From positions 30,949 through 94,948 of the IMG/VR virus record IMGVR_UViG_3300032233_001072: a stretch of DNA of 64,000 nucleotides; one strand, given 5' to 3'. The translations under genes were made by a program, and so were the position numbers. Source of the DNA: an uncultured virus (IMG/VR IMGVR_UViG_3300032233_001072) (taxonomy: Duplodnaviria > Heunggongvirae > Uroviricota > Caudoviricetes). A model generated the notes under the pieces. It was given only the letters and a program-made list of their open reading frames with translations. It was not told the DNA's origin and did no database searches. Positions 2,287-64,000 of the stretch are shown here, piece by piece (positions within the stretch are counted from its first letter, which is position 1; each line of letters starts with the position of its first letter).

Positions 2287-2296
2287 GTGCTTGTCC

Positions 2297-4152: not shown

Positions 4153-4154
4153 TG

Positions 4155-6139: not shown

Positions 6140-6145
6140 TGTTAG

Positions 6146-37302: not shown

Positions 37303-37871
37303 GGAAACCACGTCACTAACGAGTATTTAATACCGTCGTTTACAGGGTGTGCTTGATGATCGTAAGTAAGCCCAGACGGAAATAAAACAACTGAACCCGG
37401 GGTAGCCTCAATTTCTACTTTATGAAATGGAAATTCCAATACTCCCCCACTAGACGTATTTTCTAAAATAGCAACCAAACTAAAAAGTCTATTCACGCCT
37501 CCACCAGTATCAAGGTGTGTTCCGTATCTGGCTCCATTTTCATATTTCAGCATTTGCATAGGCTCATGATACCCACTTTTTGCCATAAAGTAAGAAGAGT
37601 AATCTAGAAAGCAATCCTGCAAAGGTAAGTAAACATCGTTTCTGAACATGTCATATAGATGATGTGTCTTGCCGGGATTCATAATCCATTGCAAATCACA
37701 ACTGTCTGATGTTCTGTACTCTTTTGCTTCTCCATTGGCTCCAATTAGGGATTTTGTCCAAAAAGTCTCTGCCCCTCGCAAACATTCTTTTTCTAATTCT
37801 TGAATAAAGTTTGTCCCATCAAGAACATCTTGATAAACAAAAATTCCCGTTGATTTTTCTTGTAGTTTCAT
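37299..37871 (-). CDS. 2OG-Fe(II) oxygenase
   Basis: HLD...R.FS...GG.LEFP...LFPS...H.AHPV..G.KYS. Confidence 0.9.
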   Translation of the reverse strand: MKLQEKSTGIFVYQDVLDGTNFIQELEKECLRGAETFWTKSLIGANGEAKEYRTSDSCDLQWIMNPGKTHHLYDMFRNDVYLPLQDCFLDYSSYFMAKSGYHEPMQMLKYENGARYGTHLDTGGGVNRLFSLVAILENTSSGGVLEFPFHKVEIEATPGSVVLFPSGLTYDHQAHPVNDGIKYSLVTWFP

Positions 37872-41067: not shown

Positions 41068-42480
41068 CTAGTTATTCCTATAGCCATACACACGGACTGT
41101 TCCCGTGATTGTCCCCGAAACAGGAATCAAACTAATGCCGTCAAAACTTGTAGATGCTTTCATAACATTGGATTGGTTGCGTATATAAGCCTCACCGACA
41201 AAAGAACCATTTTGTACAAGCATGCCCGTTTTCGCAGTTTCAAATGGGCTATACACAGTAATATCAAAAAACGATAGATCTGACAGTACCATTTGTCCAA
41301 GGTCGCCTATGCTTTGGATAGTTGACCTTGCTGCGCTAACCGTAGTTGAATCTGCCACAAGTGCTTGGTTACTGTAGTTTAAAGTTTGGTTATCTGAGCC
41401 TGACGTTCTAAAACGGTATTGCAAAAGTACTTGGCTAGAATTTGTTATTGATATCTCAATTTTATAGTTTTGGTACAACGCAGAAAAGCACCCGTTAATG
41501 CTCGCTGCTGACGCTGCTGAAAAAGTTACCGTACTGGAAGTTAGGGTTACGTTTGTGCCCGCAACAGAAGTAGGTGTAATCAGTTCTAAACCTGTTGGGT
41601 TTTGTGCAGGGCTGTTAGGAACAACCCATGCTGTACCGTTCCACACAAGTAAACGGTTCGTATCAGTCTCATAAGTTGTTTGACCAGTCCACGGCGCAGA
41701 AGGACGGGTAGAAGATGTTGCTTGGTATGGCGACATCGTGCCACCACCTAGTTCAACCCATGCTGAGTTGTAATAGATGTAAGAAGCACCAGTAGTTGTA
41801 TCAAACCAGACTTGACCAGCAGACGGGGATACTGGGGCGGTTGCAGAACTGGTAATTGCTATAGGACCTGTTGCGCCTGTAGGACCAGTGGCTCCCGTGG
41901 CACCAGTAGGACCAGTCGGGCCTACGGGTCCCTGTGTTTGTGGTCCAATCTCAATCCACTGAGAATCGTAGTAAACAAAAGTTTTACCTGTGTCGGATTC
42001 AAACCAAATCTGACCAGCAGCAGGAGAACTTGGAGCGGTGTCTGAGATTGTTGCCCCACCTGCGGCAGAAGCGTTTACCCACGCCGTGCCGTTGTATTGC
42101 AATACCTGATTAGTGGCAACGCTGGTTATTGTTACGTCTGAAAGATCATCAATAGATCCAACAGTGCTGGCTGTGCCCGGGGCAAACTTGGCTCCGTCAA
42201 ATTTAAGTACTTGGTTGCTAGTAGCACCAGTTGTGTCTACTTCAATGCCATCAATGAAGAGAGTAGGTACTTTTAGGGTGTCGTCTGTTTTGAGTACGTT
42301 CGCTGCGTCACGGTAGAGGTTTACGTCACCAATAGCAGTTCCGTCACCCCATACAAGGCGACCTCCACCTTGAACTTGAAGTCTTGCATAGGCATCTTGG
42401 TCTACAAAAATAGTCAACCCGTCAGAGCCAGCAGTTGTTAACTGCCTGATTGTAATTGGGGTTATAAATTTCTGTGCCAC
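41068..42480 (-). CDS. Tail fibre protein with repeated modules and short collagen run
   Basis: Two SP.AGQ.WF...TG...YY.S.W.E.G repeats; GPTGATG. Confidence 0.8.
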   Translation of the reverse strand: MAQKFITPITIRQLTTAGSDGLTIFVDQDAYARLQVQGGGRLVWGDGTAIGDVNLYRDAANVLKTDDTLKVPTLFIDGIEVDTTGATSNQVLKFDGAKFAPGTASTVGSIDDLSDVTITSVATNQVLQYNGTAWVNASAAGGATISDTAPSSPAAGQIWFESDTGKTFVYYDSQWIEIGPQTQGPVGPTGPTGATGATGPTGATGPIAITSSATAPVSPSAGQVWFDTTTGASYIYYNSAWVELGGGTMSPYQATSSTRPSAPWTGQTTYETDTNRLLVWNGTAWVVPNSPAQNPTGLELITPTSVAGTNVTLTSSTVTFSAASAASINGCFSALYQNYKIEISITNSSQVLLQYRFRTSGSDNQTLNYSNQALVADSTTVSAARSTIQSIGDLGQMVLSDLSFFDITVYSPFETAKTGMLVQNGSFVGEAYIRNQSNVMKASTSFDGISLIPVSGTITGTVRVYGYRNN

Positions 42481-42528
42481 GACCTCAATCGCTTCCTATG
42501 TTGTGACCCCTCAAGGTCTATTTAATTA

Positions 42529-43857
42529 TTAGCCTACTACAACGATTGTGTAATCGTTAGCGGAAATAGTACCGTAGAGAACAACGGAGAGAGCATCTGC
42601 GTTAGAACGGGTTACATCCCCAATAACGGTTGCACCAGTTGATACTTCGTAAATCTGTACGTTTACATCAGTAGTATTAAAGTTGTGAGTAACTACGGTA
42701 GTAGAAACACCTGTGCTAGAAGCAGCACATCCCTGTTTAGCAACACGGGCAAGTGTAGAAGCGCTTGTAGTGACTGCACCAGCAGTTGTTTTAATACCAA
42801 GGTTTGTACGAGCAGTCGCTGCATCCGAGGCACCAGTACCACCGTCTGCGACAGCAACGTCTGTGCCGTTCCATGTACCACTCGTGATTGTGCCAAGTGT
42901 TGTGATTGAGGACTGACCAACATAGTTGGCTGAAATGTCAATAGCATCAGACGTAATTGCTGTTCTGTTAGCGGTTACGTTGACATTGACTTGCGTGCCG
43001 GTCTTTGAGAGTCCGTCACCAGCCTCAAACGAGCCAGCACCAGAGAACTGCGTCCAAGTAATTCCTGTTGAGCCAACAGTTATTGTTCCGTCTGTGGAAA
43101 CAACAAAACCCGAATCAAAGTTAACGGTTCCTTCTTCAACAAAAGCAAAAGTTCCTGACTTGAGTTCACCAGTATCGGCTGTTCCGTTAGCGTCGGACGA
43201 ACGAGATGCCGCACCTGAAGCGACGGCAACGTAGATACCGGTTTCTGATGTAGTAGTTTGGTTTTTGAGAAGTACACGGTCACCAGCGACAAGTGTTACC
43301 CCGTCAATTATGTCTCCGGCTTCAAGTCCAGTTGAAATGGCTACGTTTGCAGTTGATGCCACTCTTACTGATTGTTTTACATCAAGACCTTGGCGGGCCG
43401 AGTCAACATAGCCCTTGGTGGCAATATGTGCTGCAAGTGTTGGGGTAGCAATTTTAGCGTTACCGCTTGCATCACGTATTACTAATTTACTAGCAGTTGC
43501 CTCAGAAGTAGCGTCAGCAAGTTTGGTAAAATCTGCTGCGGTTAAAAGACCAGCAATTGATGATGTTGCAAGATTTGGCGTAATTGTTGTTTGACCATTT
43601 GACTCAGTAATTGTAAGACCAGCCGCATAGGTACCACCAGAGATTACGCCATTAGCAGCACCACCAGTTTGAGCAGTTGACGCAAGAAGCGTTCTCCACG
43701 CAGTGCCAGACCAAACCTTGATGGTGTCTTCAGTGCTGTTATAGATAAGGCGGCCTTCAAAGTTGCCACTTGATGGGTCGGTAGCCAAAACCTCAAACTT
43801 AGCGCTAACCAGTTGGTTCTGGTTGAGGTCAATGTTAGTTAGAAATTTCTGAGCCAT
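42529..43857 (-). CDS. Tail fibre protein
   Basis: ATKGYVD...GLDVKQSVRVAST, GDRVLLKNQ...GIY, WTQFSG. Confidence 0.8.
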   Translation of the reverse strand: MAQKFLTNIDLNQNQLVSAKFEVLATDPSSGNFEGRLIYNSTEDTIKVWSGTAWRTLLASTAQTGGAANGVISGGTYAAGLTITESNGQTTITPNLATSSIAGLLTAADFTKLADATSEATASKLVIRDASGNAKIATPTLAAHIATKGYVDSARQGLDVKQSVRVASTANVAISTGLEAGDIIDGVTLVAGDRVLLKNQTTTSETGIYVAVASGAASRSSDANGTADTGELKSGTFAFVEEGTVNFDSGFVVSTDGTITVGSTGITWTQFSGAGSFEAGDGLSKTGTQVNVNVTANRTAITSDAIDISANYVGQSSITTLGTITSGTWNGTDVAVADGGTGASDAATARTNLGIKTTAGAVTTSASTLARVAKQGCAASSTGVSTTVVTHNFNTTDVNVQIYEVSTGATVIGDVTRSNADALSVVLYGTISANDYTIVVVG

Positions 43858-43866
43858 TAAGGTTCC

Positions 43867-44292
43867 TTACGTGAGATAGGCAAATCCGGAGAACGCTGAT
43901 GTAAAGTTTACTACAACTTGTGTAGTGCTTATGTAGTTAATTTCCCCAACAACCACTGTTTTAGCGCTATCTACAATGGTTACCGAAGGGTAGCCCCCTA
44001 AAGCATGGTTAATCGTCCATGCCGTTGAAACAGTCCCTTGGGTATGGATATGGCGAGCAGAAGTAGGGTAAACAAGATTTAATACTTGGTTTGGGGCAAC
44101 GCCAGTAATAGTGGCGCTTGCATTGGTGGCGGTTGTAACTGTTCCAATAGTAAGAACATTTGGAGGTCCGGCAACACCGGGATCGCTTACTTCCAGCACC
44201 TGTTCTGCTGGTGCAACTACAGTAGATAGGTTTTTCTGTTGAGTAACAGTTATATACCTATTAGGTGCCCTTGTAACTTCTATAGTGCTCAT
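43867..44292 (-). CDS. Virion structural protein
   Basis: W.INH.LG.YPSVTIVDS...F...FSG.AYL. Confidence 0.7.
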   Translation of the reverse strand: MSTIEVTRAPNRYITVTQQKNLSTVVAPAEQVLEVSDPGVAGPPNVLTIGTVTTATNASATITGVAPNQVLNLVYPTSARHIHTQGTVSTAWTINHALGGYPSVTIVDSAKTVVVGEINYISTTQVVVNFTSAFSGFAYLT

Positions 44293-45008
44293 ACAGGCGG
44301 TGCTGAAATTGCTGCCTCAACTACAAGAGTTCCTGATGATATGGAATCCCAATCACCTGCTGAGTCTTGTACAAAGAGGTCAAATGAGTAAGAACCTGCG
44401 GCAATGGTGTTTGCGTTAGAAACGTGTAATTCTAAGGTGGCACCAGTTGCTGGAGCCAGATAACCACGCTTGTTGGCGGGGGTTAGGGCAATTACAGTGT
44501 TTTCAGATGGTTTGGTGGAATACCAGCGCAAGTCTAGAACGGTAGTGCCAGTAGATGTCTTAGCCTGCATAAAGGCACTCTGGACAGAGATAACAACCCC
44601 ATCTGCGTCTTTCCAAGTAAAGGTACGGCGGTAATCCGTGTATTGCTTGAATCGGATTTCCATAGCCTTTGAGTCCTCCAGTGGGGTTACAGTATCTAGT
44701 GCGGTCACACTAATTGTACCTTCAACAACGGGGCGCTGAATCCCTTTTACAGTTGCAAGCACATCGTACTGAAGGTCTCCCAAAGGGAGGTCTTGGGTTT
44801 CTTCCGCAGTTAAACTAAGCATAATCCCGTTTTCACGGGTAATTGCCGTAGTGATTTCCATTTTTGCCAGATCACCTGTTTTAATGAAGGAACGGCTGTC
44901 CGTAGGCTTTAACATACTGTGCGTACGTCGGTCTTTCAGGATAAGAAGACGCTCAAAAGGAAGACCACGAGTTATGTTGTAATTGACTGTTCTAACGGTG
45001 GGAGGCAT
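44289..45008 (-). CDS. Virion structural protein (duplicated beta-sandwich)
   Basis: Two halves each ending YD/FD...GT..V; TACACT 7 nt upstream of ATG. Confidence 0.65.
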   Translation of the reverse strand: MPPTVRTVNYNITRGLPFERLLILKDRRTHSMLKPTDSRSFIKTGDLAKMEITTAITRENGIMLSLTAEETQDLPLGDLQYDVLATVKGIQRPVVEGTISVTALDTVTPLEDSKAMEIRFKQYTDYRRTFTWKDADGVVISVQSAFMQAKTSTGTTVLDLRWYSTKPSENTVIALTPANKRGYLAPATGATLELHVSNANTIAAGSYSFDLFVQDSAGDWDSISSGTLVVEAAISAPPV

Positions 45009-45030
45009 ACTATCTAGTGTACTTCAGTGT

Positions 45031-45198
45031 TCAGTCATCTTTTTTTACAAGCACTCCACCAATGTGGACAATTAGGGCAGAAACACTGATGGCAAGAGCA
45101 TAAGACTGTACCTGACCAGATAAAGTAATTAAAACTAGACCTGTACCAGCCAAAGTCCATGCCAAACCATGTAATTCTTTGATTAGTTTCTTAAACAT
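45031..45198 (-). CDS. Small 2-TM membrane protein (55 aa)
   Basis: Hand translation MFKKLIKELHGLAWTLAGTGLVLITLSG...; coupled to upstream gene. Confidence 0.7.
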   Translation of the reverse strand: MFKKLIKELHGLAWTLAGTGLVLITLSGQVQSYALAISVSALIVHIGGVLVKKDD

Positions 45199-46565
45199 TA
45201 ATTCCTCATACCAAAACGGCGCTTACGGGACTCAGATGAACCGCTGGTATCACTTCCTCCCCCACCTCCGCCAGACGGGCTTGGAGCCGGTGCTGAAGGG
45301 CTGGAAGGGGGCAAAGAAACAGTTGGTGCTACAAATAATACACCCGTTGCGGCTATCAGCGTTTTACGGGTTTTTACGTTGACTTTAGAGTCAACAGGAA
45401 CGTATGTACCAAAATTCTCACCGAATATGTTAATCTCCGATTCAAAGGCGTTACGGACCGATTCAGGGGCGTCCTGTACCGCTGTGATGAGTTGTTCGGC
45501 TTGCACTGTAGACAATTCACCCGTATCAATGGCATCAAAGATTTCAGTTGCTTGACTCGTAGTTAGAACTGCAAGTACCTCGGAATTAGTAGCAAGAGCC
45601 ACAGCCTCTTTATCATTCACTCCGCTAGAGATAATGTCCTCAACAGCAGATTGAATTTCATCTTGACTCTTGTCCATTAGCGTAGTTATCAGGGCTGCTA
45701 CGGCAGGATCTACTTGTTCAGGAGTTGGTGCAAGTGTTGTAGTTGGAATTGCTATAGTAGTGGGGGTTTCAACAACAATGGAGGTAGTAGATGCGACACT
45801 TGTGGAAGGCTCTGGGAGCGTTGTTCTTGGTATTGTGCTGGTGGTTGTGGCGGCAGCAGTCGTCGTTGTGGCAACGGTTGTCAAAGGAACATAGGTTTGA
45901 GTAGTAGTTGTAGGGGGAACAGTTGACGACGTTGTTGTGGTCGTTGGCAATTCCGTTGTTGTTGTTTGCAACATGGTGGTTGGGACCACGAGAATAGTTG
46001 TTGTGGTTGGTTCCTGAGTTGTAGTCGTAGGCGGCACTGTTGTTGTAGTGGTCGTAGTTGTAGAAGTAGTTGTAGAAGTAGTCGTGGTTGTACTAGTTGT
46101 AGTTGTGGTCGGCTCTTCAGTTGTTGTCGTAACTTCTGGCTGAGTAGTGCTTGTAGTTGTTGTGGGCACGTTTGTTGGGGCAGAGTCTGATTCCACCATG
46201 TAGAACCGGTTGTACCATCTATTAGGGTCGCCACAGCAAACACTTGTGCGTAGACGGTAAACACCTGATTCTTGAACATTATATGAAATGTATGAATCCA
46301 GACCAAACCAGTCGTCATTTACGGCTACGACGGTGTTGGCGCTGTTGTACAACCACAACTGACTGTCAATACCGTATTGCCATGCATAGGTTCTTAGGGT
46401 AAAAGTTGTGCCTGACTCTAATTCAAAGTAGTAGTCGTTGGCACCTTCGGTCCGAAACGACTCTGCGTTGGCTGAGGACACGGGGTAAATGGCTATAATG
46501 CTAAGTAATACGGGAAGTAATGATATGGGGCGACTAATTGTCCTACGAAAATTAAATCGTAACAA
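45198..46565 (-). CDS. Secreted/membrane protein with PPC-like domain and Thr/Pro-rich stalk
   Basis: Signal peptide ending ANA; DSQLWLY...NDDW.GLDS; about 150-aa poly-Thr region. Confidence 0.8.
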   Translation of the reverse strand: MLRFNFRRTISRPISLLPVLLSIIAIYPVSSANAESFRTEGANDYYFELESGTTFTLRTYAWQYGIDSQLWLYNSANTVVAVNDDWFGLDSYISYNVQESGVYRLRTSVCCGDPNRWYNRFYMVESDSAPTNVPTTTTSTTQPEVTTTTEEPTTTTTSTTTTTSTTTSTTTTTTTTVPPTTTTQEPTTTTILVVPTTMLQTTTTELPTTTTTSSTVPPTTTTQTYVPLTTVATTTTAAATTTSTIPRTTLPEPSTSVASTTSIVVETPTTIAIPTTTLAPTPEQVDPAVAALITTLMDKSQDEIQSAVEDIISSGVNDKEAVALATNSEVLAVLTTSQATEIFDAIDTGELSTVQAEQLITAVQDAPESVRNAFESEINIFGENFGTYVPVDSKVNVKTRKTLIAATGVLFVAPTVSLPPSSPSAPAPSPSGGGGGGSDTSGSSESRKRRFGMRN

Positions 46566-46686
46566 TCATTCTCCTCTAACTAATGGCATGTACTAATTTT
46601 ACCATTAGACACGAAGAGGGACCGCTCGCAAGCAGCCCCCCTCGGTGGGTTAGACCTCGTTAATAATTATACACAATTAGGTATAA

Positions 46687-47046
46687 TTAGTCTTCCCACC
46701 GTTTTTTCATTGGTTTACCTACCATTGCGCCAGCAATTTGCCCTAGGTCACGCACATCACGAATTTTCCAGTGAAGGTTACCAAGTGCTCTAGAGGTGGC
46801 GTGTGAGCCTGCGCCAGCCTTGGTAGCCCCTGCTTCATCATCTCTAAAGACCATGCTTTGTTCAACATGGCTTACATTTATAGAAGCACGTCCAAAATGG
46901 TGAACATTGATGTAAGGAGATTTACCTTTACGTTCATATGTAAAGCCTCTTGAATCGTCGGATTCATCTTCTAAATAAGTTTGAAGAGCAGATTCTTGCG
47001 CTGGGGTTATTTTAAATTGCCTACTAATGTGATCGGATGCACTCAT
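46687..47046 (-). CDS. Hypothetical protein (tag MSASDHISRQF)
   Basis: ORF track; TGATG coupling. Confidence 0.7.
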   Translation of the reverse strand: MSASDHISRQFKITPAQESALQTYLEDESDDSRGFTYERKGKSPYINVHHFGRASINVSHVEQSMVFRDDEAGATKAGAGSHATSRALGNLHWKIRDVRDLGQIAGAMVGKPMKKRWED

Positions 47047-47186
47047 CAATAAACTCCCTCACAGCAGGCATCTCTTTGCCCGCACTGGTTACAACGATAA
47101 TGGGCATGTTCCTGCCTCATGTCCCCACCACACCAGACACACTGTTCTGAGGTGTCTAACGAGTTACTTGGAGTTTCACTGACCAT
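47046..47186 (-). CDS. Small Zn-finger protein (46 aa)
   Basis: Hand translation ...CVWCGG..RQEHAHYRCNQCGQRDACCEG. Confidence 0.7.
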   Translation of the reverse strand: MVSETPSNSLDTSEQCVWCGGDMRQEHAHYRCNQCGQRDACCEGVY

Positions 47187-47314
47187 GATCCTACTCCTGT
47201 GGGTCGGATTTCTAACAAAACCGGCGTTTTGTACCCTTGTGAAGTCGCCATTCGTTTAGCCATTTCAATGGCATCACTCATTGCTGGTGTTTGTATTGGG
47301 TATGTGACAATCAT
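47156..47314 (-). CDS. Small hypothetical protein (52 aa)
   Basis: Hand translation MIVTYPIQTPAMSDAIEMAKRMA...SWSVKLQVTR. Confidence 0.55.
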   Translation of the reverse strand: MIVTYPIQTPAMSDAIEMAKRMATSQGYKTPVLLEIRPTGVGSWSVKLQVTR

Positions 47315-47354
47315 TGTGTGTATAGTGTATATCAAATGTAACGAGAGGTCTGAG

Positions 47355-48143
47355 GTGACAAATCTACAAGATTTAACAATCCCATATAACCCCGATAATG
47401 CTATTGACTGGAACGAAGATGGGGTGGTGGTTCTAAAAAACTTTATCCCTGAGGAGTTAATGGTCGCTTATGAAGAGTGTTGGCTCCGTCAAAACGGACC
47501 AGAAGGAGTAAACCCAAGGTTAGGCGGGTGGGATTACTGTACCCCTTACCGCCAGCATAAAGAAATACGTGACATCCTTTGCTATGGACCATTACAAGAG
47601 GAAATGCAGAAGTTAATTGGCGAACCAGCAGGTGTACATCTTAATTTAACGGGTTGGAAGTCAACCACCCGTAACTGGCACCAAGACTCCTATTTGAACC
47701 CTCCACACGTCGGGGACTATTATGTTGCTGCTTGGATTGCCTTAGACACTATCCACCCTGACTCGGGACCTTTTCAGTACGTCAAGGGTTCCCACAAGTG
47801 GCCTTTAGTCACACGGGAAAAGATACTTGCGGCTCTTGACCCTTCAGAACGTGACCACAGGTGGCCTACTCATTCAGAACGTCTACTTACCCCATTGTTT
47901 ACCGAAGAGATTGAATCTAGGAACGCAGAAATAACTTCACACTTACCAAAGCGTGGAGATGTGCTTTTATGGCATGGGCGTTTATTACACCGTGGTTCTC
48001 TCCCCAATGTCCCTGATATGGAGCGTAAATCTTTAATTGCCCATTATTCGGGTATTAATCACCGACAAGATATGCCCGAAGCATATACGCACGGTGACGG
48101 TTATTGTTTTCCAGTAGACGATGAAAGTAGTTCACTCAAATGA
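47355..48143 (+). CDS. Phytanoyl-CoA dioxygenase (PhyH)-family 2OG oxygenase
   Basis: WHQD, AWIALD..HPDSGPF.YV.GSH, GDVLLWHG.L.HRG; start reassigned to GTG 47355 after GAGAGG. Confidence 0.88.
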   Translation: MTNLQDLTIPYNPDNAIDWNEDGVVVLKNFIPEELMVAYEECWLRQNGPEGVNPRLGGWDYCTPYRQHKEIRDILCYGPLQEEMQKLIGEPAGVHLNLTGWKSTTRNWHQDSYLNPPHVGDYYVAAWIALDTIHPDSGPFQYVKGSHKWPLVTREKILAALDPSERDHRWPTHSERLLTPLFTEEIESRNAEITSHLPKRGDVLLWHGRLLHRGSLPNVPDMERKSLIAHYSGINHRQDMPEAYTHGDGYCFPVDDESSSLK

Positions 48144-48724
48144 AATTATTAAATGTAGGTTGTGGCACACATTATGCACAGGGTTGGGTAAATTCAGATA
48201 CGTGGGAAACTGAAGATACTAAGCCAGATGTGAAAGTAACTCCCGGTGAACCGTATCCATTTGAAGACAATACGTTTGATGCCGTATACATGGGGCACGT
48301 ATTGGAGCACATTCCATGGTTAGAAGTATCTACATTTCTTAAAGATATGCAACGTATTGCTAAACCCGGTGCACCAATGCTTGTTGTTGGTCCAGACGTT
48401 CATAAAACTATTAAACGCTGGAAAGAAGGCTCAGAACCATGGTGGTTGGTAGAGTCAGTTATGGAACATTTAGATGTTCCTGATACGCATGTTCCCGGAC
48501 TGGAATGGTGGGATGGTGCCCATCATCATTGGAATTGCCACGAGACAAGGGTTGAGAAATTGTTGAATTCCTTGGAGTTCAGTAATGTTGTCAATGTATT
48601 TGACGTAATCCCAAATGACCCAAGTGGCACGTCATGGTACGAAGAGAGCACGGGCATTACTTGGCCTGTAGTAGGAAAATACTATTGGCAGTTGGCCTAT
48701 AGATTCTGTAATATAGATGAATGA
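48140..48724 (+). CDS. Class I SAM-dependent methyltransferase (type 11)
   Basis: LNVGCG, PFEDNTFD, HVLEH, RIAKPG. Confidence 0.88.
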   Translation: MKLLNVGCGTHYAQGWVNSDTWETEDTKPDVKVTPGEPYPFEDNTFDAVYMGHVLEHIPWLEVSTFLKDMQRIAKPGAPMLVVGPDVHKTIKRWKEGSEPWWLVESVMEHLDVPDTHVPGLEWWDGAHHHWNCHETRVEKLLNSLEFSNVVNVFDVIPNDPSGTSWYEESTGITWPVVGKYYWQLAYRFCNIDE

Positions 48725-48858
48725 TTCTTTTCTTCATTCTTCTTATTGCTGGAGTTGTTTCTACACTAGTGGTACAAGCAGTACTTCTAGCAAAAGAGTT
48801 TGATTACCACCGTAAAGCGGTAAGAGAAGAAAGCCTCAAACGTCAAGACAAACGCTAA
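48721..48858 (+). CDS. Small membrane protein (45 aa)
   Basis: Hand translation MILFFILLIAGVVSTLVVQAVLL...; ATGA overlap. Confidence 0.55.
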   Translation: MILFFILLIAGVVSTLVVQAVLLAKEFDYHRKAVREESLKRQDKR

Positions 48859-49089
48859 TTAAACGCCTTTTTTGTCAACTTTGTTGAAAACAGCGTTAAT
48901 CTCATCTTTAGTCAATCTGCCGTCGTCCATGTAGGCACGGGCAAGTCCTTCAACAACAAAGGCTACGCCACCGATACCAGCCATTAAACAGGCTTTCCAC
49001 ATAGGAACACCAGCGATAGCGCCTGCTCCCATCACTGAAAGCCCAGTTGATGCGAAGGCAGCGAGAATACGAAAAAGAATGTCTTTCAT
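48859..49089 (-). CDS. Holin-like small membrane protein
   Basis: Two TMs, ARAY.DDG.LT.DEINA.F. Confidence 0.6.
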   Translation of the reverse strand: MKDILFRILAAFASTGLSVMGAGAIAGVPMWKACLMAGIGGVAFVVEGLARAYMDDGRLTKDEINAVFNKVDKKGV

Positions 49090-49142
49090 GGGTGTGTGCG
49101 TCCATTTCAAGTTGCTCAAAGTGTTTAGATACTTAGTATACC

Positions 49143-49409
49143 TTAATCAAATGGTAGTTCTAATTGTTTGAACTGTCCCCAGTTGATGTGTGGTTTTGCT
49201 GGGCGGAATACCGTAATTTCCCGATCTTGTCTGAGCAACTCATCTCGGGTGCGTTCAACGTGTGCTTTGTGTTGACGATCTAAACTATCTTTGTATTCCC
49301 GTGAGTTCTTTTCTTTGCGCCACTTGTTTATCTTGTCTTCACGGCTTGGCTTCCATGGGTCTTCCTCCCAGTCGCCTGCATCTCCTGCGTAGTCGCCGTC
49401 TTTGATCAT
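49143..49409 (-). CDS. Hypothetical protein ending QLELPFD
   Basis: ATG 6 nt after TATAAT. Confidence 0.65.
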   Translation of the reverse strand: MIKDGDYAGDAGDWEEDPWKPSREDKINKWRKEKNSREYKDSLDRQHKAHVERTRDELLRQDREITVFRPAKPHINWGQFKQLELPFD

Positions 49410-49423
49410 TAAACAATTATACT

Positions 49424-49597
49424 TCAACCACCATTGCGGTAAAAGCCCTTACCAACAAGGTTAATTGCTGGGGCGTTATAAGTACGTTTTAACTGTTCTG
49501 AGCAGTGTGGACACAACATTAGAGGCTCCTCATCACGGATTCCTCGTTCTTGCTCCCAGTGGTGGTCGTTTGGACACTTGTATTGGTACGTTGGCAT
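49424..49597 (-). CDS. FmdB-family zinc ribbon protein (57 aa)
   Basis: Hand translation MPTYQYKC...H...CPHC...KR...GKGFY. Confidence 0.85.
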   Translation of the reverse strand: MPTYQYKCPNDHHWEQERGIRDEEPLMLCPHCSEQLKRTYNAPAINLVGKGFYRNGG

Positions 49598-58178: not shown

Positions 58179-58532
58179 TTACTGATACTTATTTTCTGGG
58201 AGGTTTCCACCAACTTTTTGTGCCCATGCGTCACCGGCTTCTGTGCGTGCATCAGAATGTTCAGGGGGAGTGATACGTCCTCCACTATTCTTTGCAATTT
58301 CTTTAGCATGCTGGTACATCGCCGTTCCCAGACCACGACGTTGGTGCTCCTCATGCACCCCCACATCCCAAATACGTCCTCCCCATTCTTCCCCAGACCA
58401 CTGCAAATGTCCTATTGGCTTACCAGTCTCTTTGTCTATTGCATGTACTGAATGGCGCATTTCAGGTTCATAGTTTTTTGGGAGAGGTTGATACCGTAAT
58501 TGGTACCTATTCAAGTGTTCAGACGCTGACAT
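58179..58532 (-). CDS. GNAT-family acetyltransferase-like protein
   Basis: VGVHEEHQRRGLGTAMY...HS..RT.AG.AW. Confidence 0.8.
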   Translation of the reverse strand: MSASEHLNRYQLRYQPLPKNYEPEMRHSVHAIDKETGKPIGHLQWSGEEWGGRIWDVGVHEEHQRRGLGTAMYQHAKEIAKNSGGRITPPEHSDARTEAGDAWAQKVGGNLPENKYQ

Positions 58533-58687
58533 GCTTCCAGTATAGGGCTATTTGGGGCGGTTTTTTTGGTTAGGCAAGTTGCAGAATAGGGCTATTGGGC
58601 AATTTGGGTGTTGGTGCGATGCGACCCCTACTGCCCTATATATTATAGGCTCGCACTTAACCATGGGGGGGTCGCCCCCTGCCCCAA

Positions 58688-58703
58688 TGTTCCACGTGGA
58701 ACA
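58688..58703. promoter_or_regulatory. parS site (perfect palindrome)
   Basis: TGTTCCACGTGGAACA within a 20-bp palindrome (58686-58705); fits the bacterial chromosomal parS consensus. Confidence 0.75.
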
Positions 58704-59190
58704 TTACCCGTGGGTAACATGAACATTAGGTGAACAAAGTACACTAGCCCTTGACAAGCACCGCAACCCTTGCTCACCCCGCCATTGCCCCCTATATGGC
58801 TCGTAGAGCGCTTGGGGCAATTGCCCGCACCCACAGGTCATTTAGAGATTTTAAATGGATTCTGAGGCTCTACAGAGGCTGTTTTTAAATGCCCTCAGAC
58901 GCCCCTATTTTGCGTTCTAAGCGGAGCACCCCTGAAATGGGGCAATGGGTCATTCAGAGCGTTTAAACAGATCCTGAGGCATTCTGTACACCTATAAAAA
59001 GGGCTATAACCCTTACTGGGCAAGGGTTTGCGGGCTAACAGTAGGTTTCCACATTCCCTCAGAATCCCCGATCTTGCTATCCCCTGCACCATTGCTCCAT
59101 ATCCCCCCTGCTCCTCTCTACGCCCCTTCTAGCCCCCTCTGAGAGGATTGCTGGGAATGGTTGCTTCGGGCGATTTTCGGCGCCCCTAAT

Positions 59191-59545
59191 GCCCTCGTAG
59201 ACCCAGCCTCGCTGACAGTAAATAAATTGGGGGTTGTGTACTCCGTACCAAGGGGGTAGTATTCCTCGTGGAGGTCACATATCCGCCTCTTGGGGGGGTC
59301 GCCACTAGGGCACCCAGTCCCGCCAGTTCCTTGAAAATTGAAGAGTCCGCAAAAGTCCTAATAGGCATCGCTTCGCTCCCTCCCTCGTGTGTGACTGAGG
59401 AGTCCTGATTGATAATCCGCCTCGGAGATCAGAGCAAGCGCCGTCAATTGCATCATCAATGCAGGAGACGCCAAGTCCCTCGTAAGGGGGGCGTTCGGGG
59501 AATGTAACCACTACCGAATGGATTGATGCGGAACCCAACGAGGGC
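59191..59545 (-). ncRNA. Candidate ~355-nt structured RNA
   Basis: Terminal GCCCTCGT/ACGAGGGC pairing, several internal hairpins, no convincing ORF; strand uncertain. Confidence 0.3.
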
Positions 59546-59595
59546 GTGATTGCCCCATGAATGGTTGGGAGGTTTTTTATGATTCAAAATTCCTC

Positions 59596-59690
59596 AGGGT
59601 GCCATCACTTCGGTGATGGTGCCCTCAGAGCACTCAGAGCAAGTATCTGAATGTTGTGAGGGCAAAAGCCCTTTTAAAGCCTGAGGAGGC
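59596..59690 (+). promoter_or_regulatory. Structured operon leader (UUCG hairpin, overlapping helices, SD hairpin)
   Basis: AGGGTGCCATCAC-TTCG-GTGATGGTGCCCT; GCCCTCA/TGAGGGC; AGGGC-AAAA-GCCCT; GCCT-GAGG-AGGC. Confidence 0.6.
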
Positions 59691-59693
59691 ATC

Positions 59694-59921
59694 ATGAACA
59701 ACGATCCAAAATTCGTGTACATCATCACATGGTCAGATGGTCTTCAAGAGACAGTGCGCAAAAGCCATCAAGGCTTCCACTGGGGTCTTGGCTCCATCTC
59801 CTCTCATGTGGATGGCATGCGAATGAGTGTTGAAGGTTTGGGCGGGAGCATTTCCCGTCAAAAGAATCCATCTTGGGTCAACCCGAAGACCCCAGCGAAT
59901 CCTTTCGCCAAGTTCTTCTAA
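59694..59921 (+). CDS. Ribozyme-array ORF 1, hypothetical
   Basis: GAGGAGG SD. Confidence 0.8.
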   Translation: MNNDPKFVYIITWSDGLQETVRKSHQGFHWGLGSISSHVDGMRMSVEGLGGSISRQKNPSWVNPKTPANPFAKFF

Positions 59922-59926
59922 CCAAA

Positions 59927-59980
59927 ATGACGAAACGCCCGTGAGGGCGTCTACGGCTTGTAGTCGTACTGATGAGTCAT
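59927..59980 (+). ncRNA. Hammerhead ribozyme type II, copy 1 (predicted cut after 59951)
   Basis: ATGAC GAA ACGCCC-GTGA-GGGCGT C TACGGC-TTGTA-GTCGTA CTGATGA GTCAT. Confidence 0.93.
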
Positions 59981-60010
59981 CAGCAAAACGCCTGAGGAGG
60001 CACGAAAATC

Positions 60011-60529
60011 ATGAGTTACCGAGCAGACTGGGGCAACACCCCCGCATTCAAGGCACACGTCGCAGAACACGGCAATGGTGATTCATTCACCAATGATCAG
60101 GGTTATCCGAAAGAGCCTGTGAATTCCATCATGTGGCAGATGATCAGCATCAGCATGTCGTCAATCACCGAGAGCAACATTTCGGAGGTTTACGCACGGC
60201 TGAAGTTGGTTGAGAAAACCTTCAAATGTGGTGTGTGGGGTCAGCGATACATCGGCACCGATGGTGAGTATTCACATTCCCGCAACTGGGAGGATTACAC
60301 ACTCACCCCCGAGCACGTTCAGCAAGTCATGCACTTGTCGGTCAACATCTCCACCAAGTCACGCACTGCGTGGATCAAGGATGTTGTGTCGCTGATTCAG
60401 CGTGACACGTACATGGAGGAGGCACGGGAGATGTTCTTCGGGCACACACTGACCCCGAACAAGATCATCAATCTTGAGGTAAACGGGTGGAAGAAGTATT
60501 ACGAAGAGCGCATCAGCGTCAACGCATAA
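60011..60529 (+). CDS. Ribozyme-array ORF 2, hypothetical
   Basis: SD hairpin 59990-60001. Confidence 0.85.
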   Translation: MSYRADWGNTPAFKAHVAEHGNGDSFTNDQGYPKEPVNSIMWQMISISMSSITESNISEVYARLKLVEKTFKCGVWGQRYIGTDGEYSHSRNWEDYTLTPEHVQQVMHLSVNISTKSRTAWIKDVVSLIQRDTYMEEAREMFFGHTLTPNKIINLEVNGWKKYYEERISVNA

Positions 60530-60534
60530 CCCAA

Positions 60535-60588
60535 ACGACGAAACGCCCGTGAGGGCGTCTACGGATTACATCCGTACTGACGAGTCGT
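60535..60588 (+). ncRNA. Hammerhead ribozyme type II, copy 2 (cut after 60559)
   Basis: ACGAC GAA ACGCCC-GTGA-GGGCGT C TACGGA-TTACA-TCCGTA CTGACGA GTCGT. Confidence 0.93.
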
Positions 60589-60614
60589 CAGCGATGCCTG
60601 AGGAGGCAAAGATC

Positions 60615-61085
60615 ATGGGAATTTATTCATACGGAATCAGCGGTTCACGCATTCTTGACGAAATCGGTGTGGTGTCAACCATCCGCTTTCGCTTCAGCCG
60701 TAGTCACATGGATCGCCAGCGTGTTGCTCACCAAGAAAAATTGGATGAGCAGTACGAGGCACGTTGGGCTGGGAAGAGTTTTTCCCGACTCATAGCGTCG
60801 GGCGACCAGTTGCGGGTGTGGGCGGGCACAGACAGCCCGATCTGCGATGACTTTGAGCCACGTTCATCTTTTCCGCTCACTTGGCACTCTTTTGGAAAAC
60901 TGAGTGTTGATGAGCAGATGTCGTTGCCAATGTGGGTGCTGGGCGCCATGAGCGCAGTAGAGGAGGGCGAATTGCCTTTCGTGCCGACTACCAAGAAGGC
61001 GTACTACGAGATGGTGGACAAAGCATGCACAAAGCGTCTAATTGATGCAGGTTGGCTGAATGCACAGCCGTTGTTAACTAAATGA
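60615..61085 (+). CDS. Ribozyme-array ORF 3, hypothetical
   Basis: Start reassigned to MGIYSY after SD hairpin. Confidence 0.8.
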   Translation: MGIYSYGISGSRILDEIGVVSTIRFRFSRSHMDRQRVAHQEKLDEQYEARWAGKSFSRLIASGDQLRVWAGTDSPICDDFEPRSSFPLTWHSFGKLSVDEQMSLPMWVLGAMSAVEEGELPFVPTTKKAYYEMVDKACTKRLIDAGWLNAQPLLTK

Positions 61086-61135
61086 CGAAACACCCTTCGG
61101 GGTGTCTACGGCTTTCAGCCGTACTGACGAGTCAT
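61082..61135 (+). ncRNA. Hammerhead ribozyme type II, copy 3 (cut after 61106)
   Basis: ATGAC GAA ACACCC-TTCG-GGGTGT C TACGGC-TTTCA-GCCGTA CTGACGA GTCAT. Confidence 0.93.
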
Positions 61136-61167
61136 CAGTTATTACTCATTAGACCTGAGGAGGTCAT

Positions 61168-61458
61168 ATGTCATCATCAACCAACGTCCATTCCGTGACG
61201 AAGATTAAACCCGTGATCAATCACTTTGAAACTGGGGGCAAACATTCATTCACAACAATGAATTTAGAAGTCTTCGGCAAGGTGTGGATCAAAGGTGTTC
61301 TGCACGAAAACGTGGAAATCGCAACGCTTGAGTTTTTCTTTGACACTCAAGAAGAGTTCCACGAGGCTGTAGAGCCTCTTTGCCACATGCTCGTCGGGCG
61401 CCTCATGCCCAACATGAGCAAGCGTATAGAAACCAAGTCATTGACAGAACACATCTAA
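61168..61458 (+). CDS. Ribozyme-array ORF 4, hypothetical
   Basis: SD hairpin 61152-61165. Confidence 0.8.
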   Translation: MSSSTNVHSVTKIKPVINHFETGGKHSFTTMNLEVFGKVWIKGVLHENVEIATLEFFFDTQEEFHEAVEPLCHMLVGRLMPNMSKRIETKSLTEHI

Positions 61459-61461
61459 TAA

Positions 61462-61513
61462 ACGACGAAACGCCTTCGGGCGTCCATGGTTCAGAACCAT
61501 GCTGACGAGTCGT
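61462..61513 (+). ncRNA. Hammerhead ribozyme type II, copy 4 (cut after 61484)
   Basis: ACGAC GAA ACGCC-TTCG-GGCGT C CATGGT-TCAGA-ACCATG CTGACGA GTCGT. Confidence 0.93.
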
Positions 61514-61541
61514 CAGAATTATCGCCTGAGGAGGCAACATC

Positions 61542-61868
61542 ATGAATCAATTCCTTTGTGGAACCCCCACCGAGACCAACGAAGTCGCACCACTCACATG
61601 GGCAATGGAGACCATTGACTATCGCTTGCGTGGCATGGCACAACAGATTGAGCAACAACTTGCGGAAATTCAAGAGCATGCTCAACGGTTGCCAAGCGAA
61701 TTCGGATTCGGAGTCATCACTGGACGAGAGGCACACAGCACTGGGTATCAAGCCCAGCGTTCACTGGAGTCACTCGGGGACAAAGTACGGCGGGTCGCCA
61801 TGCTCAACGAACAGCACCTTGCGCTGGTCTTGTTGCGACGTGACCTTGCGTACTCGCTCAACTCATAA
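61542..61868 (+). CDS. Ribozyme-array ORF 5, helical hypothetical
   Basis: SD hairpin 61524-61535. Confidence 0.8.
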   Translation: MNQFLCGTPTETNEVAPLTWAMETIDYRLRGMAQQIEQQLAEIQEHAQRLPSEFGFGVITGREAHSTGYQAQRSLESLGDKVRRVAMLNEQHLALVLLRRDLAYSLNS

Positions 61869-61872
61869 CCAA

Positions 61873-61926
61873 ACGACGAAACACCCTTCGGGGTGTCCAT
61901 GGCTGAAAGCCATGCTGACGAGTCGT
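61873..61926 (+). ncRNA. Hammerhead ribozyme type II, copy 5 (cut after 61897)
   Basis: ACGAC GAA ACACCC-TTCG-GGGTGT C CATGGC-TGAAA-GCCATG CTGACGA GTCGT. Confidence 0.93.
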
Positions 61927-61955
61927 CAGAGATAGACCTGAGGAGGTCATTAATC

Positions 61956-62195
61956 ATGAAGTACAACATTGAATTCGTGTTCACAGGCACACGCCACGAC
62001 GGCACTTTTTATCTTGCCAATACTGGAGACACTTTCGTGAGAGTCTCCACTACACCTCATCAAGATATTGCTAAAAGGTTCGCCAGTTTTGGCGACGCTC
62101 TTGCTTTTGCAAGACGGCATGGCACCGATGGCGCAAAGTACAACCCGTTTAGTCATGGCACATGGACAGTCGTCCCAGCACTTGACACATTTTAA
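61956..62195 (+). CDS. Ribozyme-array ORF 6 (paralog of ORF 8 N-terminus)
   Basis: Start reassigned to MKYNIEF. Confidence 0.8.
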   Translation: MKYNIEFVFTGTRHDGTFYLANTGDTFVRVSTTPHQDIAKRFASFGDALAFARRHGTDGAKYNPFSHGTWTVVPALDTF

Positions 62196-62199
62196 TTAA

Positions 62200-62253
62200 A
62201 TGACGAAACACCCCTCGGGGTGTCCATGGCTTGGAGCCATGCTGATGAGTCAT
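62200..62253 (+). ncRNA. Hammerhead ribozyme type II, copy 6 (cut after 62224)
   Basis: ATGAC GAA ACACCC-CTCG-GGGTGT C CATGGC-TTGGA-GCCATG CTGATGA GTCAT. Confidence 0.93.
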
Positions 62254-62279
62254 CAGAGATGCCTGAGGAGGCAACAATC

Positions 62280-62618
62280 ATGGAATTAATCACAATCACA
62301 AAAGTCGCTCCAGCAACCCCAAAAGTTGGTGATGGTGCATCTCTTATCTTTTGGTCTGACCGTCATGCATGCACTGTCATAGCAGTCAGCCCCAGTGGCA
62401 AGAAGATCACCGTCCAGCAGGACAAAGCAACTCGGGTGGATGGCAACGGCATGTCTGACATGCAGAACTATTCCTTTGAGTGCAATCCGAACGGCGCCAT
62501 CTACCAATTCAGCCTTCGCAAGAATGGTGAGTGGTGCATGGTGGGCGATTCCTCCCGAGGGGGAGGCGTCGTCTGCTCCCTTCACGGGCGCTACGAGTAC
62601 TACGACTTTTCGTTCTAA
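62280..62618 (+). CDS. Ribozyme-array ORF 7, phage hypothetical
   Basis: PKVGDGA....WSDRHACTV...SPSGK...FSLRKNG.W...YYDFSF; start reassigned to MELITI. Confidence 0.85.
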   Translation: MELITITKVAPATPKVGDGASLIFWSDRHACTVIAVSPSGKKITVQQDKATRVDGNGMSDMQNYSFECNPNGAIYQFSLRKNGEWCMVGDSSRGGGVVCSLHGRYEYYDFSF

Positions 62619-62670
62619 ATGACGAAACGCCTTCGGGCGTCTGCGATTCATAATCGCACTGATGAGTCAT
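62619..62670 (+). ncRNA. Hammerhead ribozyme type II, copy 7 (cut after 62641)
   Basis: ATGAC GAA ACGCC-TTCG-GGCGT C TGCGAT-TCATA-ATCGCA CTGATGA GTCAT. Confidence 0.93.
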
Positions 62671-62698
62671 CAGCAAGCGACCTGAGGAGGTCAAAATC

Positions 62699-63073
62699 AT
62701 GAAGTACAACATTCAAATTACTCATGCGAACTCACGCATACCGAAGTACCTGAAAGCGCACATGATGCGTGGGGGCAAAATTGTCACCACTCGTTGGCAA
62801 CAAAGCGCTCGTGGCTTCAAGTCGTGGGAAGAGGCACAAGAGTTCATAGACAATGTCGGCACGTACTTTCGTGGTACGTGGACGGTCGTGGAATTTACTC
62901 TTGTCAACCAATTGAGTTACAGAGAGTTCAAAGTGGAAACTGACGGGACAATCGTCTGTTTTGATTGCGAGGAGAACTTCCCCAAGGAAGCCATCTTCGG
63001 TGATCCACGCTGGAGTGACCCACGTTGTGGCGACTGCTACGACGCCCACAAGTATGAAAGGAGCGCACAATAG
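62699..63073 (+). CDS. Ribozyme-array ORF 8 with C-terminal Zn finger
   Basis: MKYNIQI...GTWTVV; CFDC...CGDC. Confidence 0.85.
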   Translation: MKYNIQITHANSRIPKYLKAHMMRGGKIVTTRWQQSARGFKSWEEAQEFIDNVGTYFRGTWTVVEFTLVNQLSYREFKVETDGTIVCFDCEENFPKEAIFGDPRWSDPRCGDCYDAHKYERSAQ

Positions 63074-63087
63074 GTTCACGCCTAACA

Positions 63088-63141
63088 ACGACGAAACGCC
63101 CCAAGGGGCGTCCATGACTCATAGTCATGCTGACGAGTCGT
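63088..63141 (+). ncRNA. Hammerhead ribozyme type II, copy 8 (cut after 63112)
   Basis: ACGAC GAA ACGCCC-CAAG-GGGCGT C CATGAC-TCATA-GTCATG CTGACGA GTCGT. Confidence 0.93.
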
Positions 63142-63172
63142 CAGTTAACAAGACCTGAGGAGGTCATTAATC

Positions 63173-63349
63173 ATGAAAGATATAGCAGAAATCGTCATCA
63201 AGTTGACTGCACGTAATGCCGAACTCCTTCGTGAGTTTGAGCAGAACATGCCCGTAGGTGAAGCCCGAGCACACTTGTTCGGGAGCGTCAACGGCATCAA
63301 CACAGCCCTTGACATCATTGAAGAAATCATGGCAAGGGAGAACGTGTGA
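63173..63349 (+). CDS. Ribozyme-array ORF 9 (58 aa)
   Basis: Hand translation MKDIAEIVIKLTARNAELLREF...IMARENV; SD hairpin 63152-63165. Confidence 0.8.
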   Translation: MKDIAEIVIKLTARNAELLREFEQNMPVGEARAHLFGSVNGINTALDIIEEIMARENV

Positions 63350-63612
63350 TGCAGATTTATACAACAACTGAGTTGCGTTACATTGCCTTCACAGCGTTCA
63401 AGACTGACTTGTTCATTGTCCATAACCCCAAAGACCTTCCCATAAGTTTCTTGGGCTGGACATTGGACAACATCTACGACTGGCTCAACGAAAATGGTTA
63501 CTGGGAGTCGGGTGAGTTAGAAATCACTGATGACCAATTAGTGTTCATTGAAGTCAATCAACTTGATGGCATGCAGGACGAAGTAGTCGTCGCTGTAGAA
63601 ATCAAAATGTAG
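63349..63612 (+). CDS. Acidic hypothetical protein
   Basis: TGATG-coupled to ORF 9. Confidence 0.75.
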   Translation: MQIYTTTELRYIAFTAFKTDLFIVHNPKDLPISFLGWTLDNIYDWLNENGYWESGELEITDDQLVFIEVNQLDGMQDEVVVAVEIKM

Positions 63613-63723
63613 GCACATCACGGGGTGTCCCCCCGCCCCGTGGTGTCCTCAAAGGTCATCAGCAGGTTGCTGGTGGCTTTTGAGGGCATACAATTGCCCG
63701 TTACACCTAGACCTGAGGAGGTC
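63613..63723 (+). promoter_or_regulatory. Second structured leader (same architecture as 59596-59690)
   Basis: ACATCACGGGG/CCCCGTGGTGT; TGTCCTCAAAGGTCATCAGCA/TGCTGGTGGCTTTTGAGGGCA; GGGCA/TGCCC; GACCT-GAGG-AGGTC. Confidence 0.6.
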
Positions 63724-63729
63724 AAAATC

Positions 63730-64000
63730 ATGAACCAAAACTTAAACGAACTTCGGTCGTTCCTTGCCAGTCTTGACAAGGCACCTGAGCCAATGCACGT
63801 CTCGTCTGAATTGCACGCACTATCAAGTGCCAGCGATGCAGACATTGACATTGTGCTGGATCGTGCGCTCTACCCATTTCAACGTGCTGGTGTGGCTTAT
63901 GCCCTCCGCCAGCGCCGATGCATCATCGGTGATGAGATGGGGCTGGGCAAAACGATTCAAGGTATCGCTGTCGTCGCTCAGGCTCACAAAGAGGGAATGA
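63730..64000 (+). CDS. SNF2-family helicase, N-terminal part (truncated by window end)
   Basis: Hand translation ...LYPFQRAGVAYALRQRRCIIGDEMGLGKTIQ...; SD hairpin upstream; this frame is not in the ORF track. Confidence 0.92.
   Translation, partial: MNQNLNELRSFLASLDKAPEPMHVSSELHALSSASDADIDIVLDRALYPFQRAGVAYALRQRRCIIGDEMGLGKTIQGIAVVAQAHKEGM

Follow-up and report, generated by a model that had tools for sequence, protein, structure and literature searches.

What occupies the junctions between the nine short genes near the end of this phage sequence, and what would it do to their messenger RNA (mRNA)? We analyzed the last 64 kb of the 94,948-bp IMG/VR virus record IMGVR_UViG_3300032233_001072, which is rated 100% complete; this whole stretch of 64,000 nucleotides is called the window here. 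Nine open reading frames (ORFs) of 58-172 codons, g1 to g9, follow one another on the plus strand, and the junctions between them hold exactly one type II hammerhead motif each (8/8), always on the coding strand, with none elsewhere in the genome. That the eight repeats are genuine type II hammerhead ribozymes is well supported by their sequence, their covariation and their family match. The reading that we favor overall, and that we regard as probable, is that these ribozymes cut an early polycistronic RNA into single-gene mRNAs. Genes and motifs are given below with the predicted cuts and, where one was reported, the score against the Rfam family Hammerhead_II (RF02276, clan CL00010; gathering score 37 bits).

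59694-59921, 60011-60529, 60615-61085, 61168-61458, 61542-61868, 61956-62195, 62280-62618, 62699-63073, 63173-63349, plus strand: ORFs g1 to g9
59927-59983, plus strand: hammerhead 1 (type II, including the 3' CAG tail), predicted cut after 59951, RF02276 36.4 bits
60535-60591, plus strand: hammerhead 2, predicted cut after 60559, RF02276 32.7 bits
61082-61138, plus strand: hammerhead 3, predicted cut after 61106, RF02276 28.2 bits
61462-61516, plus strand: hammerhead 4, stem III of 4 bp with a UUCG loop, predicted cut after 61484
61873-61929, plus strand: hammerhead 5, predicted cut after 61897
62200-62256, plus strand: hammerhead 6, predicted cut after 62224, RF02276 35.1 bits
62619-62673, plus strand: hammerhead 7, predicted cut after 62641
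63088-63144, plus strand: hammerhead 8, predicted cut after 63112, RF02276 28.4 bits

Reading of positions 59500-64000 and a regular-expression scan confirmed all eight motifs, every one on the plus strand, and the starts listed above are exactly those of the original prediction. Each copy runs in the order AYGAC, GAAA, the stem III hairpin, GUC, the stem I hairpin, CUGAYGA, GUCRU and CAG. In hammerhead numbering, this corresponds to the 3' half of stem II, G12-A14, stem III (A15.1-U16.1 first), C17, stem I, C3-A9 and the 5' half of stem II from G10.1. The stem III hairpin has 4-5 bp, is closed by C-G and carries a GUGA, UUCG, CUCG or CAAG tetraloop; stem I has 6 bp and a 5-nt loop of the form U-NNN-A; stem II has 5 bp. 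In this strand order loops close stems I and III and stem II is open, which is the type II permutation. The motifs are assigned to type II because this permutation is combined with every core nucleotide in place, and the type II assignment made earlier is supported by sequence, covariation and family match alike. On the alignment, the core (CUGAYGA, GAAA, the A..U pair closing stem III, and GUC) is invariant in 8/8 copies, as had been claimed. A15.1-U16.1, C17 and G10.1-C11.1 are likewise present in 8/8 copies, the stem II base pair G53-C8 is invariant, and the variants of stems I, II and III, together with the four UUCG loops, had been listed correctly.

The helices change as paired RNA would. 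In the eight-copy alignment all 136 of 136 cells of the three helices are paired, and 7 of the 17 helix pairs have changed on both sides, which bears out the compensatory changes noted originally. Sliding the partners by 1-3 columns as a control lowers pairing to 16-47% of cells, and a control pattern read backwards has 0 matches in the genome. Stem II covaries, with 4 U:A and 4 C:G. A close relative, IMGVR_UViG_3300003413_000045, contributes seven further hammerheads; across the 15 copies the core is invariant (15/15) while all stem I pairs covary (6/6), and 98.8% of cells pair. Run over all 94,948 bp of the genome, a covariance model built from the array's own eight copies (R1) found these eight only, scored at 80-87 bits; its next match had 16.6 bits. 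In a permissive Rfam scan, 5 of the 8 copies match RF02276 end to end (28.2-36.4 bits, E 8e-5 to 0.011). G.U pairs occur in one helix of hammerhead 1 and in flanking structured elements, which fits with RNA made from the plus strand.

The placement of the motifs is equally regular. The claim of one hammerhead at each of eight junctions among nine small ORFs held, and the gaps from stop codon to ATG, 80-99 nt long, are occupied by a ribozyme and a ribosome binding site. The spacers between g1 and g9 have no terminator-like site and no room for a promoter. Each of g1 to g9 is preceded by a CCTGAGGAGG Shine-Dalgarno motif with the ATG 4-10 nt later, and every CCTGAGGAGG lies within a mini-hairpin of 4-5 bp, the closing pairs of which covary (GCCU..AGGC or GACCU..AGGUC). 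There are 13 such motifs before start codons of the plus-strand early module (window 59680-63721; genome 1407, 2257 and 2916) and a fourteenth at genome position 584, inside a helicase gene; none was found on the other strand or in the structural module.

59680 (59680-59689), 59991, 60597, 61154, 61525, 61937, 62262, 62681, 63154, 63712, plus strand: CCTGAGGAGG Shine-Dalgarno motifs (n=10)
63349-63612, plus strand: tenth ORF, g10, which overlaps g9 and has no ribozyme ahead of its start
59969-59983 (example), plus strand: palindrome CTGAYGAGTCRTCAG, forming the hairpin CUGAYG-AGU-CRUCAG, here called the lock; every copy has this element at its 3' end

How would such an array work? We infer cleavage in the cell, the order of the folding events and their effects on RNA stability or translation as follows. 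A single early transcript would run from upstream of g1 through g10. At each junction, the AYGAC just past the upstream stop codon would pair with GUCRU to form stem II, stems III and I would form as hairpins, and the RNA would cut itself after the C of GUC, without any host RNase. The upstream product would end in the stem III hairpin with a 2',3'-cyclic phosphate. The downstream product would begin with a 5'-OH flush with the base of the stem I hairpin and would carry a standard leader of 55-61 nt, with the Shine-Dalgarno mini-hairpin at its end. Once the RNA was cut, the products would be joined by the 5-bp stem II alone; when this melted they would part, and the freed CUGAYG strand would pair with the invariant CRUCAG tail to form the lock, blocking re-ligation and giving the new 5' end two hairpins. 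Single-gene mRNAs would result, their ends structured and exonuclease-resistant, with the same leader for each gene, whatever lies upstream. Going by how bacterial mRNA decays, ends of this kind should withstand 5'-end-dependent RNases as well as 3' exonucleases. The predicted cut positions and the resulting fragments of 608, 547, 378, 413, 327, 417 and 471 nt, as given originally, are arithmetically right.

The early polycistronic mRNA of phage T7 is also divided into single-gene mRNAs with hairpin ends, by RNase III cutting at structured intercistronic sites. There the cutting is done by a host protein enzyme; in the array it would be done by the RNA itself, with 5'-OH and cyclic phosphate ends as the result. 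RiboJ-type insulators, in which a hammerhead and a hairpin before the ribosome binding site give a uniform leader, are engineered from a satellite RNA hammerhead, whereas the type II array here is natural; what the two share is the order of hammerhead, hairpin and ribosome binding site. A processing role is the standard published reading for clusters of this kind (PMC3088659, PMC6765202), and it is plausible here. Type II hammerheads cleave both in vitro and in vivo, and three-ribozyme arrays cleave in vitro, the Agrobacterium ardA array also in vivo (PMC3088659). Three type II copies beside phage-like genes of Desulfovibrio vulgaris cleave in cells (PMC8782182).

Would the cut units be joined again? 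An excised unit would start with the 3' half of a hammerhead and finish with the 5' half of the following one, and hammerheads can ligate, so that cleavage followed by ligation would turn gene units into circular or spliced RNA. We give this almost no credence. The hybrid stem II between neighbors would hold an A.C mismatch in 3 of 7 units, and the lock hairpin would sequester the strand that is needed. RtcB and RNA ligase profiles detected neither in this phage, and circular or spliced products of arrays were looked for by Perreault et al., who found none (PMC3088659).

Several results weigh against processing by self-cleavage. First, at gathering thresholds Rfam gives no match anywhere in the window: no copy reaches 37 bits, and 3 of the 8 have no RF02276 report at E <= 10. 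The Rfam scan proposed in the original prediction was successful when permissive, with its five full-length matches, and unsuccessful at the gathering score. This shortfall arises because stem II is longer than in the model and the tail misfits the model's pseudoknot region, RF02276 expecting a 2-bp stem II and a pseudoknot tail. The array shares with members of this family the permutation, the full core, the GUC triplet and an intergenic site by small phage genes; it differs in having 5 bp in stem II, where 2-4 bp are usual, and a 3' tail that pairs with the core strand in place of the pseudoknot tail. Second, a sigma-70 promoter scan of 58500-64000 found no plus-strand promoter upstream of g1. 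Third, at no fixed register do the array copies have a pseudoknot joining loop I to the 3' tail, the only matches of loop I being 3-5 nt long and directed to the CUGA of the ribosome binding site at variable distance. Most type II hammerheads have such a pseudoknot, of 4 or more bp, as a typical and not an obligatory feature, and when it is removed, type II activity at 0.5 mM Mg2+ falls by a factor of more than 100 (PMC3088659). The array copies may have another tertiary contact; candidates for it are the U and A that are invariant in loop I and the AA conserved ahead of stem II.

Finally, the minimum-energy fold computed with ViennaRNA is not the hammerhead in 7 of the 8 copies. It consists of three hairpins: stem III, stem I lengthened by the U-A of its loop, and CUGAYG-AGU-CRUCAG, which sequesters the core strand. 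In these 7 copies the three-hairpin fold is predicted to be 2.9-3.6 kcal/mol more stable than the hammerhead secondary structure, on nearest-neighbor energies that include neither tertiary contacts nor Mg2+ stabilization of the hammerhead core. Hammerhead 3 is the sole copy with a C.A mismatch in the lock hairpin and the sole copy in which the hammerhead is the minimum-energy fold. On this modeling, the lock might form before cleavage and slow or gate it.

Are the motifs then structural elements whose hammerhead core is a relic? Three stable hairpins could serve as RNase barriers, translation insulators or protein binding sites, and the minimum-energy fold, the scores below the Rfam threshold and the lack of an identified tertiary contact would all suit such a role. 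We consider it highly improbable. GACGAAA is unpaired in the three-hairpin fold yet invariant in 15/15 copies of the lineage. The catalytic nucleotides are all intact in all copies of two diverged genomes, whereas a relic would decay, and the covariation of stem II also speaks against a purely three-hairpin structure.

The main alternative is that the ribozymes are gated or attenuated. The lock would form before cleavage, most transcripts would stay uncut, and the array would tune or time expression gene by gene; opening would come from 30S loading on the Shine-Dalgarno motif 9-20 nt downstream, from a change in Mg2+ or temperature, or from a protein. The three-hairpin fold, preferred in 7 of the 8 copies by about 3 kcal/mol, points in this direction, as do the position of the lock tail, which abuts stem II and leaves the polymerase only 3 nt later, the conservation and covariation of the lock across phages, and the absence of the pseudoknot linked to fast cleavage. 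Regulated cleavage has also been raised as an idea for phage hammerheads (Perreault et al., PMC3088659). However, the computed energies leave out the very interactions that stabilize the core, the lock is equally well explained as a trap for the cleaved product, and the mismatch in copy 3 indicates that the lock is not an absolute requirement. The array shows no evident sensor element or ligand pocket. Altogether, we judge gating, with any of these triggers, to be possible and on the unlikely side.

Is the lock hairpin selected in its own right? The evidence is suggestive. The CAG tail is invariant and is not needed by the hammerhead, and the lock is perfect in 14 of the 15 copies of the lineage. 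One variant copy in the relative, with GGAC:GUCC as stem II, still has a perfect CUGAUG/CAUCAG hairpin, here around a 4-nt loop. About 100 other viral contigs gave us 168 distinct type II hammerheads to survey, and the 6-bp lock hairpin was present in 28 of these. Among tails of the form C-N-UC-R-G that are rightly placed in this sample, position N7 of the core complements the tail base in 30 of 30 (22 U:A, 8 C:G and 0 mismatches); permuting the tails among the copies, which are not phylogenetically independent, gives a mean of 15.7 complementary pairs and a maximum of 23. It is the invariant tail, the variant copy and this complementarity elsewhere that suggest selection. Within the lineage, covariation cannot separate the two folds, since the only position of stem II that covaries does so with the free core position N7 as well. 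No description of the lock hairpin was found in the limited collection of literature searched.

A separate observation concerns contig IMGVR_UViG_3300038560_000007, where the copies at 1201-1262 and 1939-2001 have CCGAUGA instead of CUGAUGA (U4 to C). In the copy at 1939-2001 the tail reads CAUCGG, and the lock stays complementary to the changed core.

How has the array changed between related phages? The relative shows 88-97% nucleotide identity in the common parts, and its array at 1294-3678 aligns to window positions 59927-63144; here the motif search in related phages proposed originally yielded seven copies. It encodes orthologues of g1, g2, g4, g5, g7, g8 (C-terminal part) and g9 at 50-98% protein identity. 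Its array is missing g3 and g6, and an additional gene of 66 codons lies between g1 and g2. Each of these three cassette differences has its alignment breakpoints inside ribozyme-ribosome binding site units, and the relative's hammerhead ahead of g4 is a hybrid of copies 2 and 3. Because of these breakpoints and the hybrid copy, the repeats mark the gain and loss of cassettes and probably mediate it by homologous recombination. In our genome g6 and the N-terminal half of g8 are paralogues; the relative's g8 has lost this g6-like domain through a precise 220-bp deletion in which the repeats were not used.

These same breakpoints and the hybrid unit could be taken to mean that the repeats, about 85 nt each, act chiefly at the DNA level, as portable recombination junctions for single-gene cassettes, with RNA cleavage secondary. 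Variable gene content is seen in published clusters too, where the genes between hammerheads are described as 'not constant' (PMC3088659). However, similarity suffices for recombination, which leaves the invariant core, the compensatory helices and the strict position with respect to strand, stop and start unexplained, and a fourth difference, the deletion in g8, bypasses the repeats. We consider a primary DNA-level role decidedly unlikely; cassette exchange is more aptly viewed as following from the layout than as competing with RNA processing.

Is an array of this kind new? The original prediction implied that it was, and this did not hold. Hammerheads clustered around single genes or short gene blocks were described in prophages in 2011, with processing of polycistronic RNA proposed as their role (Perreault et al. 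2011, PMC3088659), and reviews have called the role of hammerheads in phage genomes open (PMC6765202 of 2019, PMC6155905). The array matches these clusters in that several same-strand hammerheads flank single genes of variable content in a phage genome. With the prophage clusters of Agrobacterium tumefaciens (the ardA triple array), Clostridium scindens and Azorhizobium caulinodans it shares same-strand ribozymes flanking small non-conserved ORFs (PMC3088659, PMC6155905, PMC6765202). Unlike them, it has eight copies, skips no junction, consists of one nearly identical subtype and has each copy fused to a standard ribosome binding site.

Equal or larger arrays also exist elsewhere. A pattern scan of IMG/VR matched at least 120 contigs, and R1 was run over those loci and some whole records. 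Among the matches listed are a same-strand nine-copy array in IMGVR_UViG_3300038560_000007 (1201-7641), seven-copy arrays in IMGVR_UViG_3300005436_000034, in one further IMG/VR contig and in the relative, and many arrays of 3-6 copies. The layout of stop codon, hammerhead, Shine-Dalgarno motif and ATG recurs in unrelated viral contigs. In the cultured Streptomyces phage R4 (NC_019414.1), reached through a short blastn match, there are nine RF02276 matches above the gathering score (39-54 bits) on the minus strand at 41776-49461. Like the array in the window, those of R4 and IMGVR_UViG_3300038560_000007 are same-strand type II copies in a small early gene block, and in the latter a Shine-Dalgarno motif and an ATG follow each ribozyme. 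They differ in spacing, which is less regular (one to several genes between copies), and outside the ribozyme their sequences show no similarity to this phage; the copies in R4 score above the Rfam cut-off, whereas those described here do not. The array is thus not new in kind, both the arrangement and its proposed role having been published since 2011: eight copies at eight consecutive junctions lie at the dense end of the known distribution and within it. In the limited collection of literature searched, we found no papers on large hammerhead arrays or on hammerheads in Streptomyces phages.

Two further observations concern R4. Its array (R4 locus segment 45-107, 687-752, 2994-3062 and 5362-5430) lies in the early region and adjoins an OCR-like antirestriction gene. 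Three of its hammerheads coincide with the tiny annotated coding sequences gp75.1, gp67.1 and gp60.1, and these three are probably ribozymes and not genes.

What does the array offer if knowledge of this kind of element is left unchanged? It is an unusually clean natural case: every junction within a block of nine genes has a nearly identical ribozyme fused to a standard ribosome binding site, and in a relative whole cassettes have been gained and lost. It makes testable whether ribozymes insulate or stabilize single-gene early mRNAs independently of host RNases, whether a conserved hairpin locks or gates a ribozyme, and whether ribozyme-ribosome binding site units serve as portable junctions for gene exchange. 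R4 is a cultured phage, and its nine-copy array provides a laboratory system. We consider the lock hairpin, the cassette breakpoints and a second structured element worth closer attention.

This second element occurs at junctions of the plus-strand module that have no hammerhead: before g1, before an SNF2-like helicase gene, and at genome positions ~2140-2256 and ~2800-2915. A variant lies at ~1290-1406. The two copies in the window are as follows.

59596-59680, plus strand: element E1, unclassified structured element upstream of g1
63613-63711, plus strand: element E2, second copy of E1, between g10 and the SNF2-like helicase gene (63730)

The element consists of a long hairpin (13 bp in E1), a hairpin closed by UCAGRG/CYCUGA, a GGGCA-loop-GCCC hairpin and then the Shine-Dalgarno hairpin. 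In seven sequences, 11 predicted pairs have compensatory changes on both sides and several are G.U, which fits with RNA made from the plus strand. It has no Rfam match in the window or in the rest of the genome, and a pattern search of 130 other viral loci gave only chance matches within coding regions. The element's CCUCAG could pair with CUGAGG in the ribosome binding site, to which it is complementary. The element may serve as a processing site or a translational switch, or it may be a terminator or leader structure.

Taken together with the lock, this element raises the idea that the junctions of the early module are interchangeable RNA devices, two of them undescribed: a switch or trap formed by the lock hairpin, and a three-hairpin element that is self-processing or a processing site. 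The pairing of the lock with the CUGANG core, a conserved trait of many phage type II hammerheads, would be a built-in switch, with cleavage licensed for example by ribosome loading on the next gene, or an irreversible product trap, and E1/E2 could do the hammerheads' job where these are missing. We regard this scheme as unlikely.

What kind of phage carries the array? The best explanation is a 95-kb myovirus-like tailed phage in which the block represents small early ORFan genes forming one plus-strand transcription unit. A structural module on the minus strand fills most of the window and encodes tail sheath, baseplate, portal and large terminase; at ~59.6 kb the coding switches to the plus strand, and G+C increases there from about 0.44 to 0.51. 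The contig, classed as linear, lacks a terminal repeat. The SNF2-like helicase gene is split across its two ends, starting at window 63730 and continuing at genome position 1, and because the contig is cut inside this gene we take the genome or assembly to be a permuted circle. Rfam found nothing relevant in the genome's other 31 kb. A T7-type RNA polymerase profile detected none in the phage, in a search that had no positive control. Minus-strand 'terminators' in 58500-64000 were rejected as stem III read backwards, their number being no higher than in shuffles.

The large terminase is 47% identical to those of Streptomyces phages, and the nearest cultured relatives by terminase (Streptomyces phages LuckySocke and BRock and Bacillus phage BCD7) have no hammerheads. 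A blastn search of the array against 50,697 phage records gave no match. The proteins of g1 to g9 have no Pfam or PADLOC match; across Pfam, PHROGs, PADLOC and a protein atlas, g7 alone matches, to phrog_19789 of unknown function. In the structural or late region, the ORF at window 35827-37311 on the minus strand matches phrog_2928, annotated as tryptophan halogenase, strongly (E 2e-106).

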